Positions 8,159 through 22,603 of a stretch of 64,000 bases of DNA are shown piece after piece. The notes below the pieces were generated by a model that saw nothing but the letters and a program-made list of their open reading frames with translations, searched no databases and was not told the origin of the DNA. The position numbers and the translations under genes are program-made. Position 1 is the stretch's first letter; every line of letters begins with the position of its first letter. The DNA is from an uncultured Gammaproteobacteria bacterium (GTDB lineage Bacteria > Patescibacteriota > Patescibacteriia > UBA2196 > CAYSSY01), in contig CAYSSY010000001.1 in NCBI GenBank assembly GCA_964434055.1, forward strand, positions 5,094 through 69,093, written 5' to 3'.

Positions 8159-9559
8159 TTAATTTCTGTTGCCCAGACATTGTTTAAGATTATGACTATT
8201 TTGTGTTTTGCTGACAACTATCATCATACCAATCAGCAACCAAAACAAAACCGCTAAGTCATTTTTAAAATATGGCACATCGACTAAACCGTGAACAAGC
8301 AAGGCTATCATAGATGCCATCAATACGGTTGAAAATTTACAATCAATGACTGTTGTCTGTCGTTTGTTGTCTGTCGTTTGTTGTCTGTCGTTTGTTGTCT
8401 TTCTAAAACCAGCGACATAAAACCACCCGACTATTATTATAAAAGCAGTTAATCCTAACAAACCAGTTTCAGACCAAAAAGTCAAAAAAATGTTATGAGG
8501 ATATAAAAATATTTCAATATACTGCTTCTGGTGAAATGACGCCAGCGCGCTTTGATAACCATTAATACCCGAACCGAGTAATGGTCGTGTCTTTAGCATT
8601 TTAACAGTTTCACTCCACATTTCAAGACGAGTGGAAATTGAATCACCTCCAACAACTGTGGTGTCGCCTTTAAAATTCGGCAAGCCATTCATTAATATAT
8701 AAAAAAATAAAAATAAAAAAACAATAATTATGAATCCTAAAAAATATTTTCTAAACGGCTTATAAAAAAAGGCATAGAAAATAATACCCACTAAAACTGC
8801 CAATAATCCGCCTTTTGATTTAGTAAAATAAATAACGGTAAACCCCAAGATACAAGATAAAATTAACAATAAATTTTCAATTCTTAATTTCCAATTTTTA
8901 CTCAATTCCTTGACTCTCAATTTTTGCTTCTCAATCCCAGCTACAAAAAAACCCAACAACATTATAACTACTGGTGCCAGATAAAGCGCTAAGGCATTCG
9001 GATACGTAAAAATTGATGTTACTCGCCTGGTTGCCTCAGCTGCCCAAAAAGGATTAGTAATAAATTCACCGGTAAATTTTTGATACAAAGCAAACAATGA
9101 CAAGATTAAAACATTTAAACCTAAAACTGCGATTACTTTTCTAAAATCCTCTTTGTTCATGATCGAAATAAAAACAATAAAAAATAAAAATGGCTCTAAA
9201 AAATACGCGCGCCACAAACCGACGGCCGAATATAAGTTAGGCGACATAAAAATAGAAATAATTGATGCAATCAATAACAATGAACAGCCAACTAACAGTA
9301 ACTTAAAATTTATAATTTTAGATTTAAAATTGCTAATTATTTCTTTAGCGTCTCCGTATTTTAATGCTCTAATGAAAAAAACCACAAATAAAATCAAAAT
9401 TTCAAACTCCAATATGGTTGTTGGTAAACCAAAAACTTTAAAACGCACTAAATATAAAGGCAATGTCAAAATAACTAAATAAACACTATTCTTCAGATTT
9501 TTAAAAGAAAGAATTAAAAAAATTATCAAATAAATGGTAATAAAAAAAAGTTTAAGCAT
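8159..9559 (-). CDS. O-antigen ligase / Wzy-like polytopic membrane protein
   Basis: 466 aa, more than 10 predicted TM helices. Overlaps the downstream flippase gene by 8 bp, so the two form an operon. Confidence 0.5.
   Translation of the reverse strand: MLKLFFITIYLIIFLILSFKNLKNSVYLVILTLPLYLVRFKVFGLPTTILEFEILILFVVFFIRALKYGDAKEIISNFKSKIINFKLLLVGCSLLLIASIISIFMSPNLYSAVGLWRAYFLEPFLFFIVFISIMNKEDFRKVIAVLGLNVLILSLFALYQKFTGEFITNPFWAAEATRRVTSIFTYPNALALYLAPVVIMLLGFFVAGIEKQKLRVKELSKNWKLRIENLLLILSCILGFTVIYFTKSKGGLLAVLVGIIFYAFFYKPFRKYFLGFIIIVFLFLFFYILMNGLPNFKGDTTVVGGDSISTRLEMWSETVKMLKTRPLLGSGINGYQSALASFHQKQYIEIFLYPHNIFLTFWSETGLLGLTAFIIIVGWFYVAGFRKTTNDRQQTTDNKRQTTVIDCKFSTVLMASMIALLVHGLVDVPYFKNDLAVLFWLLIGMMIVVSKTQNSHNLKQCLGNRN
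8351..8400. repeat. 14-bp tandem repeat (tgttgtctgtcgtt x3.5) inside the coding sequence of 8159..9559
   Basis: Three full copies at 8351, 8365 and 8379, plus a partial copy. It encodes the repeated TTDNKRQ motif near the C-terminus. Confidence 0.8.
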
Positions 9560-10988
9560 GATTGCCGTTCTTACCTTTAATGAAATCTACTGGATTGAAA
9601 GTTCCTTTTTTAAAAACACCAAAAAAATATAAACTACTAAAATAAACAACGCCACCTAAAACGATAGACAGCAACAGACCTCTTTGACTAAAAAATATGA
9701 TCGTCGCCATTACTAAACTGGCTAAAAAACTTAAAAAACTATTCTTAAATTTAATTTTTATTTTTGTTTCCTGTCGGACATTCGCCCAAGAAGCCACAAG
9801 AATGAAAGCTTCAACAAAAACAGTTATCAGCGCTGCTGCCCAATATGAATAACGAGGAATAAAAATAAAATATAAACTAAGCGCACTCAAAGCAGCTACA
9901 ACATAATATTTCATCATTGTCTTCTGACGATTAACGGCAACAACGGCAAAAGTCGAAAGGTGTGCCCAAAAAATTATTCCAGTCGCGACAATTAATATTC
10001 TTAATATCCCAGCTGAGGCTATAAATTTGTCGCCAGCAATTAACATTATTAAAGGATTTGCTAAAATAATAGTTCCTAAAACCATAGGGCAAACAATCAG
10101 TGACAAAAAATCAAAAGCTTTCTGAAAAAAATTCTGGAATTCTATTTGGTTTTTCAAGGACCAAGCGCGAGAAAGATAAGGTGAAACCAAACCCATAAAA
10201 ATCGCTGGAAATGCAATAAGAACTTCTAAAATTTTGTATGGCGCGCCATAAATTCCTACTTCTGACTGTGGACGATAAAGTGAGAGAATAATAGTATCAG
10301 CTTTAAAATAAATCATTGAAAAAACCATATAAGTCGCCACTGGCCATACTTTTTTAAAAGTATCACGCCAAATATTTTTATCAAAAGCAAAAGAAAAAGA
10401 TAAAATTTTTCTGGCAAAATAAAAATTAATTAGAAAATGGACAGCCGTACCAGCCACAACAGTTAGAAGTACGGTCAAAAAACCAGCCTGACTCCTAATC
10501 ACTATCAAAGTCAGTGCTAAAATAATAATCTTGCCACAAATTTCTGCCAGAGCTGGATATTTTGTTTTTAACTGTTGTTGAAAAAGTGCCACCAGGATCT
10601 GATCAAGCATCATTAAAAATACCGGAATGGCAATAATTAACGTACCATTTTTTATTTCTTGATCATAAGGAAAAAGAAAAATAAGTACACCGGCTAAAAA
10701 CATAAAAAAAAGACTGGAAAAAAATCGCATGGTAAAAATATTGCTATAAAATCTTTTCTGATCTAAATTATCACGCCCTAATTCATTAACTGACACTAGA
10801 TAAAGTCCTAGATCACCAATGGTTGAAAAGAAAAAAAGATAGGAAAAAACGGTGGTATAATAGCCATAACCTTCCGGACCTAAATAGCGAGTCAATAACC
10901 CGATAATGAACAAACCTAAAGCCGAACCGGAAAATTTTCCCAGTGTATGAATAAGTGTATTTTTAGCAATGGAAAGCTTTAAACTCAT
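9552..10988 (-). CDS. Polysaccharide biosynthesis protein / oligosaccharide flippase (Wzx, MOP superfamily)
   Basis: The N-terminus LKLSIAKNTLIHTLGKFSGSALGLFIIGLLTRYLGPEGYGYY is typical of Wzx. The track start 11024 is TTG; the start was moved to ATG 10988. Confidence 0.7.
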   Translation of the reverse strand: MSLKLSIAKNTLIHTLGKFSGSALGLFIIGLLTRYLGPEGYGYYTTVFSYLFFFSTIGDLGLYLVSVNELGRDNLDQKRFYSNIFTMRFFSSLFFMFLAGVLIFLFPYDQEIKNGTLIIAIPVFLMMLDQILVALFQQQLKTKYPALAEICGKIIILALTLIVIRSQAGFLTVLLTVVAGTAVHFLINFYFARKILSFSFAFDKNIWRDTFKKVWPVATYMVFSMIYFKADTIILSLYRPQSEVGIYGAPYKILEVLIAFPAIFMGLVSPYLSRAWSLKNQIEFQNFFQKAFDFLSLIVCPMVLGTIILANPLIMLIAGDKFIASAGILRILIVATGIIFWAHLSTFAVVAVNRQKTMMKYYVVAALSALSLYFIFIPRYSYWAAALITVFVEAFILVASWANVRQETKIKIKFKNSFLSFLASLVMATIIFFSQRGLLLSIVLGGVVYFSSLYFFGVFKKGTFNPVDFIKGKNGNHA

Positions 10989-11136
10989 AGGTTGATTGTA
11001 GCACCTGACACGCCTTTTTGACAAAAATCTATATAGATATTTTGATTTTTTTATCCACAGTTGACGCTTTAGTAATTATCCTTTATTCTTAATAATGAAA
11101 ATGCCTATCAGACAAAAAAAATTAAACACTTACTGA

Positions 11137-14222: not shown

Positions 14223-15527
14223 ATGAATCATAAAATAAAAAATCTTCCCTCAGGACGTCTAGAAATTGAAATCTCAGTGGAACCAAGTGAATACCAAAAT
14301 AATTTGGAAAAAGCCGCCCGTAATCTGAAAGATATTAAAATTGATGGTTTCCGGCCCGGCCAAGCGCCTTACGAGTTAGTTAAAAATAAATTGGGAGAAA
14401 CTAAATTATTAGAAGTAGCTTTGGAAGATATCGTCAGCCACACATTTTTTCAAATAGTCAAAGATAATGATTTAAATGTCATTGGTGCTCCTGAAATTAA
14501 AATTATCAAAATGGCCCCGCAGAATCCGCTGGTCTATCAGGCTGTGGTTGACTTATTGCCGGAGCTGACATTGCCTGATTTGGAAAAAATAAAAATAGAA
14601 AAAAAAGAAATAATTGTTTCTGAAGAGGACATCAATCAGGCGTTGACAGAACTACAAACTATGCGGTCTAAAGAATCTCTGATTAATCGGCCTGCTCAAA
14701 AAGGTGACAAGGTGGAAATTGACTACAACATCAGTCTTAATAACGTACCAATTGAAGGCGGGCAACAGAAAAAATTTCCTATCTATTTAGGGGAACAAAA
14801 AATGATTCCTGGTCTTGATGAACAAATTTACGGTCTGAAAACTGGTGAAGAAAAAGAATTCCCGCTGCAATTACCTGAAAACTTTTTTAATAAGAATCTG
14901 GCGGGCAAAACTGGCGAATTCAAAATTAAAGTTCATGGTGTCTTTCAAATCGATAAAGAGGAAATTAACGATGACTTCGCCGGTCGGGTTGGCACCTTTA
15001 AAAACTTAGCTGAACTAAAAAAACAGTTGTCCGATAACATCAAGATAGAAAAAGATCGTGAGGAAGAAAAAAAAGTGGAAACAACTTTAATTGACAATTT
15101 AATCGATAAAACTAAGTTTGGCGATATTCCAGAAAATTTAATTAAACGCGAAACGCAAATTATGATTGAAGAGTTAAAAAATAACCTAGCCAATTATCAA
15201 ATTAATTTTCAAACTTGGCTCAATAATCTTAATAAGAAAGAAGACGACTTAATTGCAGATTTTCAGCCCCAAGCTTTGAGGCGTGTTCAAGCGGCGCTAA
15301 TCATGCGAGAAATTATAAAACAGAATAATTTGCAAGTAACTGCTGAAGAAATTGAAGCTGAGATTGAACATCTACAGGAACATTATATTGAACATCTACA
15401 GGAACATTATCAAGACAACAATGAAGTAAAAGAAAAAATTAATTCTCGGGCTTATCGTGATTACTTAAAACAAAATTTGCTTAGTCAAAAAGCTATGAGC
15501 TGGCTTAAAGAAAAAGTGGTTAAATAA
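14223..15527 (+). CDS. tig: Trigger factor
   Basis: GFRPGQAPYELVKNKLG motif and a length of 434 aa. Contains an internal 24-nt duplication (EHLQEHYIEHLQEHY) at 15366-15410. Confidence 0.8.
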   Translation: MNHKIKNLPSGRLEIEISVEPSEYQNNLEKAARNLKDIKIDGFRPGQAPYELVKNKLGETKLLEVALEDIVSHTFFQIVKDNDLNVIGAPEIKIIKMAPQNPLVYQAVVDLLPELTLPDLEKIKIEKKEIIVSEEDINQALTELQTMRSKESLINRPAQKGDKVEIDYNISLNNVPIEGGQQKKFPIYLGEQKMIPGLDEQIYGLKTGEEKEFPLQLPENFFNKNLAGKTGEFKIKVHGVFQIDKEEINDDFAGRVGTFKNLAELKKQLSDNIKIEKDREEEKKVETTLIDNLIDKTKFGDIPENLIKRETQIMIEELKNNLANYQINFQTWLNNLNKKEDDLIADFQPQALRRVQAALIMREIIKQNNLQVTAEEIEAEIEHLQEHYIEHLQEHYQDNNEVKEKINSRAYRDYLKQNLLSQKAMSWLKEKVVK

Positions 15528-16430: not shown

Positions 16431-17196
16431 ATGCAACTCACTATTTTAGGATCCGGTACGGGTATTGCCACAAAAAATCGTAACGCACCCGGCTATCTTA
16501 TAAACGTCGGTAATAAATTAATATTACTTGACGCCGGAGAAGGAACAAAAAGACAAATTATTAAAGCAGGGTTTGATTTATTTTCATTAACACATATCTT
16601 TATTACTCACACCCATGTTGATCATGTGGCTGAAATTCCGGCAATAGTATGGCCTTTTCATTTTACACGGGTAAAAAGTGTTCTAAATTTTTTTGGTCCA
16701 CCACGGTTTAAAAAATTTTTTGGAACCGCTTTCAAGGCATTCATACCGAATATAAATCAAAGAAAGAAACTAAAAATTAAAATCAGAGAATTAAAAAATA
16801 ATAAAATAAAGCTAGATGACATAACTATTGAAACCAGACTGATGACTGAAAAAATGGGAAGCACTTTTTTGTGAACAAGAAATCGGCTATAGCATCACTT
16901 CAAAAAACAAATCAGTAGTTTTTTGTGGAGATAATACTGAAGAAAGTCTGCCAGACATAATGTGCTTAGCAAAAAACTGTGATCTGTTAATTTTAGATTG
17001 TGGACAGATTAAACCAGGTAATGGTCACTTAACACCAACTCTCGCTGGTCAAATAGCACAAGCCGCACAGGTAAAAAAACTGCTACTCACTCACTTTTAT
17101 CCTGAAATGGAAAAAATTGATATAAAAAAAATAGTCAAAAAATATTATTCCGGCCCAATTATATTGGCCAAAGATTTAATGAAAATTAAAATATAA
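16431..17196 (+). pseudogene. MBL-fold metallo-hydrolase (RNase Z/ElaC-like). It is split by a +1/-1 frameshift in a T6 homopolymer at 16865-16870.
   Basis: ORF 16431..16874 carries HTHVDH (the HxHxDH motif). ORF 16960..17196 in another frame carries the C-terminal part (LLLTHFYP). Removing one T from the tttttt run joins them into a roughly 255-aa protein. Confidence 0.6.
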
Positions 17197-18686: not shown

Positions 18687-18761
18687 GGTCCCTTCGTCTA
18701 ACGGTTAGGACATCAGGTTTTCATCCTGAAAATAGGGGTTCGATTCCCCTAGGGACTACCA
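18687..18761 (+). tRNA. tRNA-Glu (anticodon TTC), CCA encoded
   Basis: Acceptor GGTCCCT/AGGGACT, anticodon loop TTTTCAT, T-loop TTCGATT. A terminator hairpin follows at 18767-18796. Confidence 0.85.
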
Positions 18762-18868
18762 AAAGATACTCATTCGTGATAATGAGTGTTTTTTGTTTTA
18801 GAGGTTTTTTCTTTTGTTAAAAAATTAAAAAAAGTCTGATCAATACTGATCAGACTTTAAGAGTCTTG

Positions 18869-20635
18869 TTATTTTTTCTCCTCCAACTTGAGTCTGAATA
18901 ATAACTGCCAAAGATATGTTTGTAATTTGCCATAACTCCAAGTCTGGTTATCAATCCACGTATCGCCCCCTGCCAACACCTTTTCCAGATGATTAACAAC
19001 CGCTTGCCAACCACCAACTTCTCTGCTCACCTCTTCATTGATCACAAAAGGGTCAAAATCTGCAACTGTCTCTGCTATGGGAAGAATGTGGCAAGCACAA
19101 TAGAAAGATTCAGCTAAACCAGCTTCTTCATCTCCGATCGCACCAGCTGCTTCATACAATGAGTCAGCAAAGTCTTGGATTTCAGTGACTGAATACTCCG
19201 GTACCACAGTTGGGCCGCAAATATAGATTGTACCTTGACCAGTAGTGGCATCGTTGACCACTTCAATTGGTACCTGCCAAACCTTGATACAGCGATCAAA
19301 TTTGGCACAGCACTCAAGCTGATGTAAAAACGCCAAGTCAGTCTCAGTACCAATAAATAAGATATCCTCTCGGCTGCAGATCTGCTGAAAATGTTGTCCA
19401 CCGCGACCGCTAGTGTGGTTAAGAGAAGGGAGACCGGCGGAAATATGACCCACAGTATTATACTGAAGTTCCACTAACGCAGCAGCGTTATTGAAATGGG
19501 TATAACTTAACGTTGGAACACGTTCAAAGGATAATCCGGCCACTAAAGGACCAAAGCCAGAAAAACCTGTCTGGGGTACTATCAGCAGATAATTTTTGAG
19601 GATACCGTTAAGATATTCTAGCCAAGAAACATTTTCGTGCGTCCAACCATGTAAACCAGCCCGAACTACAACCTGACAAAACTTCTTGCCATGATTCACG
19701 ATGTCGGTCCCTTGGCACAAAATTACTTTACCTGTGGCTTCATGTGAAATCGGGTCAGGAATTTTATCCTCAAATGGTGCTGCTTGCACAACGGTGATCG
19801 CATCTGGATTAGTATCCGGTGTAGCCCATTCGAGATAATAATTTTTCTGGATTTTAAGTAAGCGCAACGCCTCCCAGAATTTTATCAGTGGCTCGGGTGA
19901 AAAACATCGCCGTAATTCATCAGGCACTGGAATTTCTTCACACTGTCCAGATTCAACATTTATTGCCTGTAAAGTACAAAGATGACTGAGGTTGTAACTG
20001 ATATCAAACATGGTTGGCAACTCTTTGCTAATAACCACCGCTTCAGAATCAACTGCTTTTGTCCCTAAACCCAGACAAACTCGGATTAAACGCTGACCTC
20101 CATAACTCGTGTAAGCACTGCCTGCCAGAAGCGGACAAAAGTACTTACCATAATGACGACCGACCACTGATTGAATCATGACTGCAATACCAAAAGGTGT
20201 ATAGTGTTTTTGGCGATAAGCTCTGGCGTCAGCGCTAAACTCACTGGCAAAAACTGTACATTCAGCCTGCCACAGGAGTTCAAGATTTGATTCCTGGTTT
20301 GCTTTGGGCACAATGAAAACTGTTTTATAAATACCAGTACCGCCCCGCTCACCTCTGGCTGAGGAACGGACAGCTACTGGATAACCTGTTTTGAACCCTG
20401 AAACTAATTCCTGATTAATTGTCAGAAGATCTGGCGGAATTCTGCCACTCAGAACCTGATCTTGATCAGTGTTTTGCTCAAAACCGTTTGTTGCCAAAAA
20501 AGATAAAAAATATTCAACCCCTACTATCTCACCGATAATCGCCTGTAAACCAGCCTGAGATACATCTTGAACAGCGTCTAACAAATCTTGAAATTTGAGA
20601 CCGCCGTCCTGACCGTGTAATTTGTAAAGAGCCAT
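18869..20635 (-). CDS. PEP synthase / pyruvate-phosphate-dikinase-like protein: N-terminal ATP-grasp (PPDK_N-type) domain plus a possible degenerate swivel-His segment. It lacks the C-terminal PEP-binding TIM barrel. GC-rich, likely foreign.
   Basis: PVAVRSSARGE...VFASEFSADARAYR...GIAVMIQSVV...CLGLGTKAV aligns block-wise to the PPDK_N consensus (VAVRSSA, VFASLF..R...YR, AWGLGE). Later, TSGRGGQHFQQICSRED resembles the GGxxSHAAIxARE phospho-His motif. About 47% GC. The track start is TTG; the start was moved to ATG 20635, which has an AAGGAG SD. Terminator hairpin at 18833-18856. Confidence 0.5.
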   Translation of the reverse strand: MALYKLHGQDGGLKFQDLLDAVQDVSQAGLQAIIGEIVGVEYFLSFLATNGFEQNTDQDQVLSGRIPPDLLTINQELVSGFKTGYPVAVRSSARGERGGTGIYKTVFIVPKANQESNLELLWQAECTVFASEFSADARAYRQKHYTPFGIAVMIQSVVGRHYGKYFCPLLAGSAYTSYGGQRLIRVCLGLGTKAVDSEAVVISKELPTMFDISYNLSHLCTLQAINVESGQCEEIPVPDELRRCFSPEPLIKFWEALRLLKIQKNYYLEWATPDTNPDAITVVQAAPFEDKIPDPISHEATGKVILCQGTDIVNHGKKFCQVVVRAGLHGWTHENVSWLEYLNGILKNYLLIVPQTGFSGFGPLVAGLSFERVPTLSYTHFNNAAALVELQYNTVGHISAGLPSLNHTSGRGGQHFQQICSREDILFIGTETDLAFLHQLECCAKFDRCIKVWQVPIEVVNDATTGQGTIYICGPTVVPEYSVTEIQDFADSLYEAAGAIGDEEAGLAESFYCACHILPIAETVADFDPFVINEEVSREVGGWQAVVNHLEKVLAGGDTWIDNQTWSYGKLQTYLWQLLFRLKLEEKK

Positions 20636-20897
20636 CTTAGTCTCCTTCAATTTTATTTTCCATAATCTCAACAGTCACATGTTACTTGAAGGTCAAAAAC
20701 TTGTCAATTTAAACTTTGATTATCATGACCCCAAACACAATTAAATAAAAGATCTAATTATTGGTTTTAATGCTAGTATTTTCAAGATTTTGACTAAATT
20801 GAAAAAACAAACCCTTGACAAGTAGCCAACTAACTCTACTATTAATATTAATAATTTTTCAATTCTAATAATTACCTATTAAAATCAGTATTAATTT

Positions 20898-22466
20898 ATG
20901 GAAACAGATACTAGGTCAAACGGTCAATTAGCAATCAAAAAAATAGGCACAAACGAAGTATTAAAAAAACTTAAAGAAAGTATCTTGATTCACAAACCAG
21001 TACTACGTCAGATTATCAATGATCACGGCGATAAATATATTAGCCAGTATGCTGAAAGTTATCATCAACTATCAATTAGTAAAAAAATAACCTCACGACA
21101 AATACAACTACTTAATACCTTTAATAAATATGTAGCAGACCGCCTTGATCAGTCGGTGGCAGATCAGGCTACGCAGCAGCTTAAAAAATCTTATTTTGTT
21201 TCTACTACTGATCATCATGGACCGTTAATTCATCCTTTTTTTGTTAATGGTAACCTAATCAGCGCCGCCTCACATCTCAGTCAAAATCCACAAGGACCAA
21301 ACAATGTCATTGTTTTTTCCTGTGCTAACGTATCTTTAAATAACTCATCTTTTCCGCGCGGCCTGCTTTTCCACCGGCTAGAAAAAAATAAAGCACACAT
21401 GGAACGACTGTCTTTCTATCCGGCCAGTGACCGACTGTGCCCTGTCTATGGTTTGCGACCTTATACCAGCAAAGATATCGATCGACTTGTCAAACAAATA
21501 AATAACTTGAATAAAAAAGGTAAACTCTCAAATAAAACCACGGCCGATATCCGCGAAATACTAACTGGTGTTATGGGAACAGAAAAAATACTCACAACCA
21601 AAAACTTTACTGATCAAGTTACAAAAATTAATTTTCAACTTTGGCAAATTTTCTTCCGCCGTAATAATCTTAATGCTATGAATCTGATCTATATTGATCA
21701 AGAGGGTTTAGTAAATGAGTTGTTACTTAACTACCACCTAGACAAAAATACACTGATCAATAAAATTCTATTCAATAATGAAGTCAGAAAACTCTGGTTG
21801 TTATATTTTGACGGTATCATCGGCTCGTTCAATACTGCTGATAAAATCGGCACTCATTTCTTTTGGGCAATACCACCGAATGAAAAATACCGTCAACAGC
21901 TCTGGTATAAAGACGGCCGTCTGCAAACAAGTGATGGTAGTTATTCTCTGGATTTAAATCCACAAACAATCAGACAGGCAATTCTCAATAAAGAAATTAT
22001 GCCCGGCATGGCATTAACCTTTACCATACTGGCTTTTTATTACGGTTTAAAATGTTTAGGTGGCTTTAGTCAGGTCAATTATCTAAGTGAGATGAAAGCT
22101 AGTTTCCTGAAACTAATCACTGACATCAACGACATAGAAAGCCGGGAAATAAGCCAAGGAGTAATTACCAATGAATTATGTGGAGAGGTAACTTTAGCCT
22201 TCATTCAAAGCCCAGGACAATTTATTCATCCCGCTACCTTTATAGATTTGTTGCTCTATGGCGACAGAAGCACCTGGCAAAAAATTACTCAACTAATGAA
22301 ACAAATAAAACTTGAAGAGGCTCTCGACCCTTTAATGCCTGAGCTTTACCGCATTGTCTATAGTGATCAAGAACGTTTAACGTTTTTAACCGATATTACC
22401 CCTGAACATATTATTCAAGAAACCAAACTAGGTAAAAAAATACATCCTTGCGCTTTTCTTGTTTAG
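20898..22466 (+). CDS. Hypothetical 522-aa protein, divergent from the PPDK_N-like gene
   Basis: Long ORF with an ATG start and no recognised motif. A candidate promoter TTGACA is at 20814. Confidence 0.4.
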   Translation: METDTRSNGQLAIKKIGTNEVLKKLKESILIHKPVLRQIINDHGDKYISQYAESYHQLSISKKITSRQIQLLNTFNKYVADRLDQSVADQATQQLKKSYFVSTTDHHGPLIHPFFVNGNLISAASHLSQNPQGPNNVIVFSCANVSLNNSSFPRGLLFHRLEKNKAHMERLSFYPASDRLCPVYGLRPYTSKDIDRLVKQINNLNKKGKLSNKTTADIREILTGVMGTEKILTTKNFTDQVTKINFQLWQIFFRRNNLNAMNLIYIDQEGLVNELLLNYHLDKNTLINKILFNNEVRKLWLLYFDGIIGSFNTADKIGTHFFWAIPPNEKYRQQLWYKDGRLQTSDGSYSLDLNPQTIRQAILNKEIMPGMALTFTILAFYYGLKCLGGFSQVNYLSEMKASFLKLITDINDIESREISQGVITNELCGEVTLAFIQSPGQFIHPATFIDLLLYGDRSTWQKITQLMKQIKLEEALDPLMPELYRIVYSDQERLTFLTDITPEHIIQETKLGKKIHPCAFLV

Positions 22467-22603
22467 AATTATCCAATAAACCAATAACTTAACTTGGCTA
22501 AACTATTGGTTTTTTGTCTATAAAATATTATTATTGTATAATATATCTATCCAATTATAACTAACCCACAGCTCCCAAGAGAGCTTGACGATAATATAAA
22601 AAT

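Follow-up and report, generated by a model that had tools for sequence, protein, structure and literature searches.

The window, by which we mean the whole 64,000-nt stretch of DNA analysed here, carries on its minus strand (8159..9559) a gene for a 466-aa polytopic membrane protein of the O-antigen-ligase family (Wzy_C, Pfam PF04932, WaaL fold). The host resembles the candidate phyla radiation (CPR), as those homologues that carry names are annotated as Patescibacteria, Kuenenbacteria and Falkowbacteria. Within the gene lies a tandem array of a 14-nt unit (8351..8400, minus strand), and the window holds the gene in its full-length, or ON, frame. A first-pass annotation, made from the sequence, had put this array forward as a candidate for phase variation. 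Copy number is not invariant in related genomes: an allele with one unit fewer (P0121) is on record, and natural ON and OFF alleles of the gene exist in otherwise identical DNA.

The array consists of 3.57 perfect copies of the unit, and the 14-bp repeat described at first pass is recovered as such by Tandem Repeats Finder (TRF; period 14, 3.6 copies, 100% matches, no indels). Its TRF score of 100 is the highest among the 88 rows for the window. In an exact-repeat scan for perfect arrays with periods of 4-30, at least three copies and a length of at least 24 nt, it was the only array found in the whole 64 kb. The chance expectation for such perfect runs, calculated from base composition, is about 1e-14. 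The plus strand reads tgttgtctgtcgtt three times and then tgttgtct, while the coding strand reads AGACAACA followed by three copies of AACGACAGACAACA and encodes K387-T403. Each unit in turn consists of two heptamers, ACAGACA and ACAAACG, that have diverged but still agree at five of seven positions. From one 14-nt unit to the next the reading frame changes, through three frames in all, so the encoded peptide is not reiterated; the repeating peptide 'TTDNKRQTTDNKRQTT' that had been predicted does not occur, and the actual product is K387-TTNDRQQTTDNKRQTT-403 (peptide KTTNDRQQTTDNKRQTT). T is missing from the coding strand of the array, where every base is A, C or G. The array therefore cannot form a hairpin, and a hairpin-driven mechanism was rejected for this reason.

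Since 14 is not divisible by 3, gain or loss of a unit shifts the reading frame. Simulated products remain in frame with zero (452 aa), three (466 aa) or six units (480 aa), and run out of frame with one (403 aa), two (400 aa), four (417 aa) or five (414 aa). With two units the stop comes two codons past the array, and with four it comes ten codons later. The first-pass annotation was right to expect a frameshift but counted 55 codons behind it; there are 63 codons downstream of the array (residues 404-466; 8162..8350, minus strand), and they encode the last two transmembrane helices and a cytoplasmic tail. The 400-aa OFF product lacks these last two helices and, with them, the invariant HGLVDVPYFKNDL motif.

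This OFF product exists in nature. The 90%-identity cluster of the window protein has three members, two of 466 aa (from JGI and NCBI) and one of 400 aa (from ENA). The 400-aa member, P0121, is encoded on ENA contig k141_50610 (L001/L084; ERZ27257500, 24.4 kb) and ends in '...TTDNSH*', which is exactly the in-silico product after deletion of one unit. The DNA of this contig shows a clean 14-nt gap at the array with perfect flanks. Compared with the JGI contig (L002), it has no substitutions over 3,081 nt, and the sole difference is one 14-nt unit. Compared with the window, it is 99.73% identical over 17,150 nt, differing by 30 substitutions, two single-base homopolymer indels and the one unit, whose loss is the sole multi-base indel in the alignment. 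Two independent assemblies agree on 3.57 copies in the window species. On the OFF contig the frame downstream of the array is intact and without further damage, which argues that the OFF allele is not a decaying pseudogene. By exact look-up, an 81-aa downstream ORF (open reading frame) was found on the ENA contig only.

Other searches were aimed at further sequences of the window species. An exact search of JGI metagenome contigs with 26-nt flanks returned only the contig already known, a single-protein scan of genome contigs found no relative of the window species, and neither the window protein nor P0122 gave a record when looked up exactly on contigs. A homologue search with the C-terminal 155 aa for fragments of the same species returned none above 58% identity. 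It did expose C-terminal fragments on long contigs of other species, which led to the case of an 8-nt array.

Single-unit changes also disrupt the gene in other species. Ten multi-member clusters were examined, with DNA compared for a subset. In one strain pair (L086 and L087), an (AGTTACA)n array in the homologous loop has 4 versus 5 copies, giving products of 425 versus 481 aa with no single-nucleotide polymorphisms (SNPs) in 4,278 nt. In Kuenenbacteria (L085 and L006), an (TTTATATC)n array has 2.9 versus 3.9 copies; the gene is split into 288 and 170 aa in the first strain and is intact at 451 aa in the second, with one SNP in 5,513 nt. All three confirmed ORF disruptions are single-unit changes of an array. 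The L086/L087 pair has a second array, (AGTAACT)n, which begins at the Wzy_C stop codon (L086 2935; L087 ~2942-2980) and also differs by one unit (4 versus 5). Its unit is approximately the reverse complement of the in-gene unit, and the two arrays bracket the last 56 codons of the gene.

Some shortened proteins in the family have other origins. Two further length variants were checked at the DNA level, and both proved to be artefacts. P0307 was rejected as a frameshift allele because its aligned 5′ 520 nt are identical to those of a full-length sister, making it a start-codon call, and P0259, a 288-aa 'truncation' in a further species, was rejected because it results from an NN scaffold gap. 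The shortened N-termini of P0269, P0301 and P0302 look like start-codon calls. P0297 (286 aa, from an ENA contig of 8,435 nt, in the P0024 cluster) departs from its 424-aa relatives after '...LIAAVA' and continues in a GC-rich-looking tail, GLAHGCALERRLCGWLAAWHQDSRQ. This odd tail could reflect a chimeric contig or a rearrangement.

Arrays of this kind recur in the gene well beyond the window species. A profile scan with one genome per species gave 80 orthologue loci, all at most 54% identical to the window protein, so the window species is not among the GTDB representatives searched. Lineage names among the 80 loci are nearly all CPR (Kuenen-, Falkow-, Magasanik-, Uhr-, Komeili-, Buchanan- and Saccharibacteria); many records bear only generic or placeholder names, hence our description of the set as mostly CPR. 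The Wzy_C gene is intact in every one of the 80. By exact-repeat scan, the Wzy_C genes (115 kb) contain 21 perfect arrays and the flanks (387 kb) contain 2, an enrichment of about 35-fold (binomial p=5.6e-12) over a baseline made up of the 3-kb flanks of the Wzy_C loci, that is, flanking genes plus intergenic DNA. Seventeen of the 21 arrays have a period of 7 nt, two of 8 nt, one of 14 nt and one of 9 nt, so that 20 of 21 are non-triplet. At least one non-triplet array is present in 15 of 80 species (19%). Loci with perfect arrays include L014, L018, L024, L032, L053, L054, L077, L079 and L081, and L081, labelled Saccharibacteria, has three. The flippase that neighbours the gene in 34 of these loci is a polytopic membrane protein too, and its genes held no array in 45.6 kb.

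The positions of the arrays recur while the unit sequences do not. Seven of the 21 map to residues 383-412 of the window protein, the loop that holds the window array itself, and their units are unrelated (AACTATC, AATTGGC, AATTACG, AATCAGA, AATTGGA twice, CAAATTC). Six more map to loop 208-237, two lie in or beside loop 69-96, and two are in the first helix, just past the start codon. The last four lie elsewhere, at 137-140, at 279-291 (two arrays) and at 364-373. On this mapping, the arrays concentrate in the three long loops predicted to be cytoplasmic. The window gene has a second, decayed array of heptamer origin (8872..8900, minus strand; TRF: 2.1 copies, 86% identity; reverse complement AAGAATTGGAAATT), which is AATTGGA-like and encodes S220-KNWKLRIEN in the cytoplasmic loop 208-226. 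For comparison, (AATTGGA)3 translates as NWKLEIG.

In homologues, the loops at 386-403 and 208-232 also take what look like in-frame insertions of palindromic elements. The peptides seen there (P0002, P0005, P0006, P0010, P0016, P0281 and P0107/P0283; L086 2650-2712) include CHPELVSES, CHSGPDPEF...RRDDN and VIPEKSGIQ...SGSPIKSRMT. Such peptides resemble in-frame translations of GC-rich palindromic interspersed elements, comparable to the Rickettsia palindromic elements found inside genes. One genome has a second Wzy_C paralogue, seen as a tblastn high-scoring pair in another frame at L014 548-1591, some 1.4 kb upstream of the orthologue.

The first-pass identification of a Wzy/O-antigen-ligase-like protein is borne out by Pfam (PF04932, E=2.3e-23, 83.1 bits against a gathering cut-off of 31.7, residues 235-374). 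A model made with AlphaFold2 (AF2) on 106 homologues has a mean pLDDT (per-residue confidence) of 91.5 and a pTM (predicted template-modelling score) of 0.92. Its best match among solved structures is 7tpg_B, WaaL of Cupriavidus metallidurans (Foldseek E=4.1e-7, TM 0.61/0.68); the next matches are to FtsW (SEDS), at E ~1e-2. A profile search of PDB sequences also gives 7tpg (E=1.9e-4). WaaL (7TPG/7TPJ) and the window protein have in common the Wzy_C domain, a GT-C-like multi-helix fold and a large external loop with a conserved His. However, sequence identity to 7TPG is only 14%, and the HGLVDVPYFKNDL motif of the window family is not conserved there.

The family alignment has 26 invariant columns across 106 sequences. 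One group is found where the large external loop (residues 291-358) ends; there, H355-N-x9-G366-xx-G369 (8453..8497, minus strand; H355-N356...G366-L-L-G369) matches the O-antigen ligase signature H[NSQ]x9Gxx[GTY]. Y353, P354, H355, E364 and G366 are invariant in the 106 homologues. The most conserved block of the family is downstream of the array: motif H423-GLVDVPYFKNDL-435 (8255..8293, minus strand) forms an outer-face turn between the last two helices, which the AF2 model places at 404-426 and 433-463. G424, D427, F431, K432, N433, D434 and L435 are invariant, and H423, L425, V426, V428, P429 and Y430 are at least 90% conserved.

The large loop 291-358, with its invariant YPH355N, corresponds to the external catalytic loop of WaaL, and loops rich in K and R (64-86, 208-226 and 386-403) alternate with it. 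Given this alternation, the positive-inside rule predicts that the repeat peptide is cytoplasmic, on the side opposite the catalytic loop. The array stretch is the only low-confidence part of the model near the C-terminus (pLDDT 67-68); it is a coil that links helix 357-395 to helix 404-426. The length of the loop at this position ranges among homologues from a few residues to more than 40.

To our knowledge, CPR bacteria are generally thought to lack lipopolysaccharide, so the acceptor of the transferred glycan is probably a different polymer or a protein rather than a lipid A core. For the window protein, activity as a Wzy-like polymerase or as a PglL-like protein O-oligosaccharyltransferase would be just as possible as WaaL-type ligation.

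From these alleles and arrays, we consider it likely that the 14-nt array is a hypermutable slipped-strand site, switching a Wzy_C surface-glycan ligase or polymerase between a full-length ON and a truncated OFF form. During replication, the nascent and template strands would re-pair one 14-nt unit out of register. The frame would be kept only at 0, 3 or 6 units (plus the 8-nt partial copy), and the window, with three, would be ON. OFF products would be missing both C-terminal transmembrane helices as well as the invariant HGLVDVPYFKNDL turn, which is predicted to sit on the face of the catalytic loop, and because of these losses the OFF enzyme is expected to be dead. Undecaprenyl-linked glycan flipped by the adjacent Wzx-like flippase would then no longer be transferred or polymerised. 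The array itself would be tolerated because the loop that it encodes is cytoplasmic, rich in K and R, poorly structured and very variable in length across the family. The slippage, its reversibility and rate, the loss of activity, the glycan and acceptor concerned, and an adaptive value (for instance, heterogeneity towards phages or host cells) are what we infer beyond the alleles themselves.

Several observations weigh against reading the array as a switch. First, the collections searched hold three sequences of the window species, in two array states, and each allele is an assembly consensus, one per sample from the three samples compared. Nine predicted products of alternative copy numbers (n=0, 1, 4 and 5 for each of the two allelic backgrounds, n=2 for that of the window) were looked for among 15 billion proteins and none was found. 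Second, a copy number of 3.57 is low beside classical contingency loci, which have tens of units, and given this low number the switching rate may be modest; slipped-strand phase-variable loci typically switch reversibly at about 1e-5 to 1e-2 per generation. Third, some function might survive in the split halves (the 400-aa protein and, in L001, the called 81-aa ORF). Fourth, a perfect (AATTTTC)4.3 array shows no unit change between L088 and L089, which have 5 SNPs in 3,630 nt and differ in this gene by a start-codon call only, and strain pairs were picked for differing protein length, an ascertainment that biases the share of variable arrays. Finally, part of the enrichment of arrays in Wzy_C genes could reflect the permissiveness of the loops and not selection for switching, because the same loops accept in-frame insertions of palindromic elements.

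Taken to its end, permissiveness would make the locus a non-adaptive hot spot, with the array a neutral in-frame expansion of 42 nt in an unconstrained loop and the one-unit-fewer allele an ordinary loss of function in a sometimes dispensable gene, no switch having been selected. Such an account explains why the arrays sit in loops. The loop is very variable in length among homologues and receives unrelated in-frame insertions, some of them like translated palindromic elements, and in-frame 9-nt arrays vary in the family too, as (DIK)2 versus (DIK)3 and as GILGIL. Copy numbers are low, and the window species offers two states only. We nevertheless regard a neutral origin as unlikely. Neutral variation in loop length would favour triplets, but nearly all the arrays are non-triplet. 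A protein this strongly conserved should purge arrays that are prone to frameshifts, yet its genes are enriched for them, while the neighbouring flippase has none. The perfection of the arrays implies ongoing turnover, and the OFF alleles are free of secondary damage.

The strong preference for a 7-nt period, and the many units that begin with AATT, could instead point to a role for the repeats other than switching: as binding or structural elements in DNA or RNA, as a means of tuning the loop at the protein level, or as sites where an OFF frame is rescued by transcriptional or ribosomal slippage. The second, roughly inverse-complementary heptamer array past the stop codon in L086/L087, which also changed by one unit, fits such a role. 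Heptamer repeats occur in cyanobacteria and Beggiatoaceae, and regulatory roles have been proposed for abundant heptamer direct repeats elsewhere (PMC4679880). Roles of this sort seem quite improbable at the window locus. The unit sequences are wholly different between species, even within one loop; the coding strand of the array, lacking T, allows no hairpin; the window has no conserved motif or partner sequence; and the demonstrated direct effect of a unit change is truncation of the ORF.

That the one-unit differences are mis-assemblies of short tandem repeats is very improbable indeed: although all the sequences are metagenome assemblies at consensus level, and one further species' truncation proved to be a scaffold gap and another a start-codon call, the arrays (28-50 nt) would fit inside a typical short read, and also inside the final k-mer of 141 implied by the k141_ contig names, each difference amounts to precisely one unit between perfect flanks, as seen in three species and across independent ENA, JGI and NCBI assemblies, and two of those assemblies agree on 3.57 copies.

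Switching by slipped-strand mispairing at the array is the best-supported reading, and it would be a mechanism of a known kind: frameshift-type phase variation of the sort seen with NeuO and pglE. In E. coli K1, the capsule O-acetyltransferase gene neuO of prophage CUS-3 contains a coding heptanucleotide repeat (5′-AAGACTC-3′) and gives a full-length product only if the unit count is a multiple of 3; neither the ON nor the OFF genotype is rare among sequenced strains (PMC13001214). The likeness lies in a non-triplet array inside the ORF of a surface-polysaccharide enzyme. However, neuO has 3-53 units at its 5′ end, and its repeat peptide contributes to activity, whereas the arrays described here have 3-5 units (of 14 nt in the window and 7-8 nt in relatives), lie in internal cytoplasmic loops of a polytopic membrane protein encoded by a chromosomal, core-like CPR gene, and are known from comparison alone.

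A second parallel is the pilin glycosyltransferase gene pglE of Neisseria meningitidis, in which a heptanucleotide array turns a surface glycan ON and OFF (PMC7157529). The gene there serves protein glycosylation. The window unit is built from ACARACR-type heptamers, which may resemble the CAAACAA-type unit of pglE. PglE differs in being a soluble glycosyltransferase of a host-adapted pathogen, encoded at a species-specific locus, whereas the array here lies in a WaaL-fold membrane enzyme and recurs across many candidate phyla. Haemophilus influenzae has tetranucleotide repeats in lic1A, lic2A and lgtC, as well as a 7-bp repeat in the hmw promoters. At contingency loci such as these, slipped-strand mispairing acts on simple repeats in genes for LPS or surface glycans and creates stochastic ON/OFF heterogeneity (PMC2651432). 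Those loci have long arrays, often of more than 15 units, and measured rates, in contrast to the short arrays, longer units and comparative evidence of the present case.

It had been suggested that such switches are rarely described in CPR bacteria, and a literature search agrees, as it gave no slipped-strand or phase-variable CPR locus. A search for phase variation or slipped-strand mispairing in CPR/Patescibacteria, or for repeats in CPR O-antigen ligases, returned nothing but a hypervariable 9-mer (PTD) repeat gene in a Gracilibacterium (Sieber et al. 2019, PMC6851277). This is the only tandem-repeat hypervariation in CPR in the literature searched, and it differs from the window array in having a triplet period, which leaves the reading frame intact, and in varying the sequence of a large extracellular protein; it is neither a Wzy_C gene nor a frameshift switch. 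The same literature held nothing on how CPR/Patescibacteria vary their surface. What is new here is the lineage, the target gene, the format of short arrays with long units, and the fact that arrays reappear at homologous loops in many candidate phyla.

The CPR/Patescibacteria make up a large share of bacterial diversity. They are mostly uncultivated, and are thought to have very small genomes with few regulators and to live attached to host cells. The locus provides direct comparative evidence in this group for the contingency-locus strategy of host-adapted pathogens. It also pinpoints a recurrent target across many, mostly CPR, lineages: a WaaL-fold glycan ligase or polymerase paired with a flippase. 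'Truncated' or 'split' Wzy_C genes in CPR metagenome-assembled genomes may be phase-OFF alleles rather than pseudogenes or assembly errors. Existing metagenomic reads could address whether ON and OFF states coexist, whether they track phage or host dynamics, and which glycan is involved.

It is tempting to go further, though here we are somewhat more doubtful than confident. Non-triplet arrays in the loops and at the 5′ end of Wzy_C genes might be an evolvability trait that is ancient, kept up by selection and common to the whole Patescibacteria/CPR radiation, in which the sequences turn over and switchability stays at the same loops. Stochastic switching of a surface glycan would then be the main means by which ultra-small episymbionts with minimal regulation diversify their interactions with phages and host cells. 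The preference for heptamers and for AATT-rich units could point to a lineage-specific mechanism of slippage or of array seeding.

The gene next to the ligase encodes a Wzx-like flippase (Polysacc_synt, MOP superfamily) of 478 aa, counted from the ATG at 10988 (9552..10988, minus strand; PF01943 E=1.4e-27, PF13440 E=7.4e-22). The full ORF extends over 9552..11024(-), and the 478-aa gene call is found in the sister contig. Its stop overlaps the ligase start by 8 nt, so that both the flippase and the 8-bp overlap noted at first pass are upheld. From this overlap alone we infer that ligase and flippase may be co-transcribed. A flippase gene lies directly upstream of the Wzy_C gene in 34 of the 80 related loci, an arrangement expected of Wzx/Wzy-dependent glycan pathways. 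An Rfam scan of the window gave tRNAs only. On the other side, tRNA-Ser(CGA) starts 18 nt past the ligase stop codon in the window, while in L086/L087 a gene for the undecaprenyl-diphosphatase BacA lies downstream of Wzy_C.

The window and the ENA contig differ elsewhere as well. Beside tRNA-Glu (18687-18761), about 3.8 kb of the window (18807-22590) is replaced by about 250 nt in the ENA contig; positions 1-504 of L084 map to window 23093-22591, which makes 18807-22590 a strain-specific island by a tRNA gene. The island codes for a 600-aa protein with a PPDK_N domain (18869-20671, minus strand) and for a 522-aa protein without a Pfam match (20898-22466, plus strand). The two single-base homopolymer indels between the strains lie 37 nt apart, at 16865 and 16901 (A5 versus A6, T6 versus T7), at the 3′ end of ORF 16431-16874 (Lactamase_B, weakly Apyc1-like). 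In the window this ORF codes for 147 aa, in the ENA contig for 167 aa; its 3′ end may be frameshifted, or the two indels may compensate each other.

Other repeats are present in the window. Two imperfect heptamer arrays, AATTTTC x4.1 (2838-2866) and ATTGAAA x4.6 (2905-2936), are roughly inverse to each other and lie in the spacer between two T4SS_pilin-like genes (coordinates mapped from L084). A perfect 24-nt tandem duplication (ATTGAACATCTACAGGAACATTAT x2, in frame) occupies 15363-15410, within a 434-aa ORF (14223-15527); at the corresponding position, the sister contig has a gene annotated as trigger factor. Eighteen A or T homopolymers reach 9 nt, and none exceeds that length. Runs of G extend to 6 nt at most and runs of C to 7 nt, the C7 run being located within tRNA-Cys.

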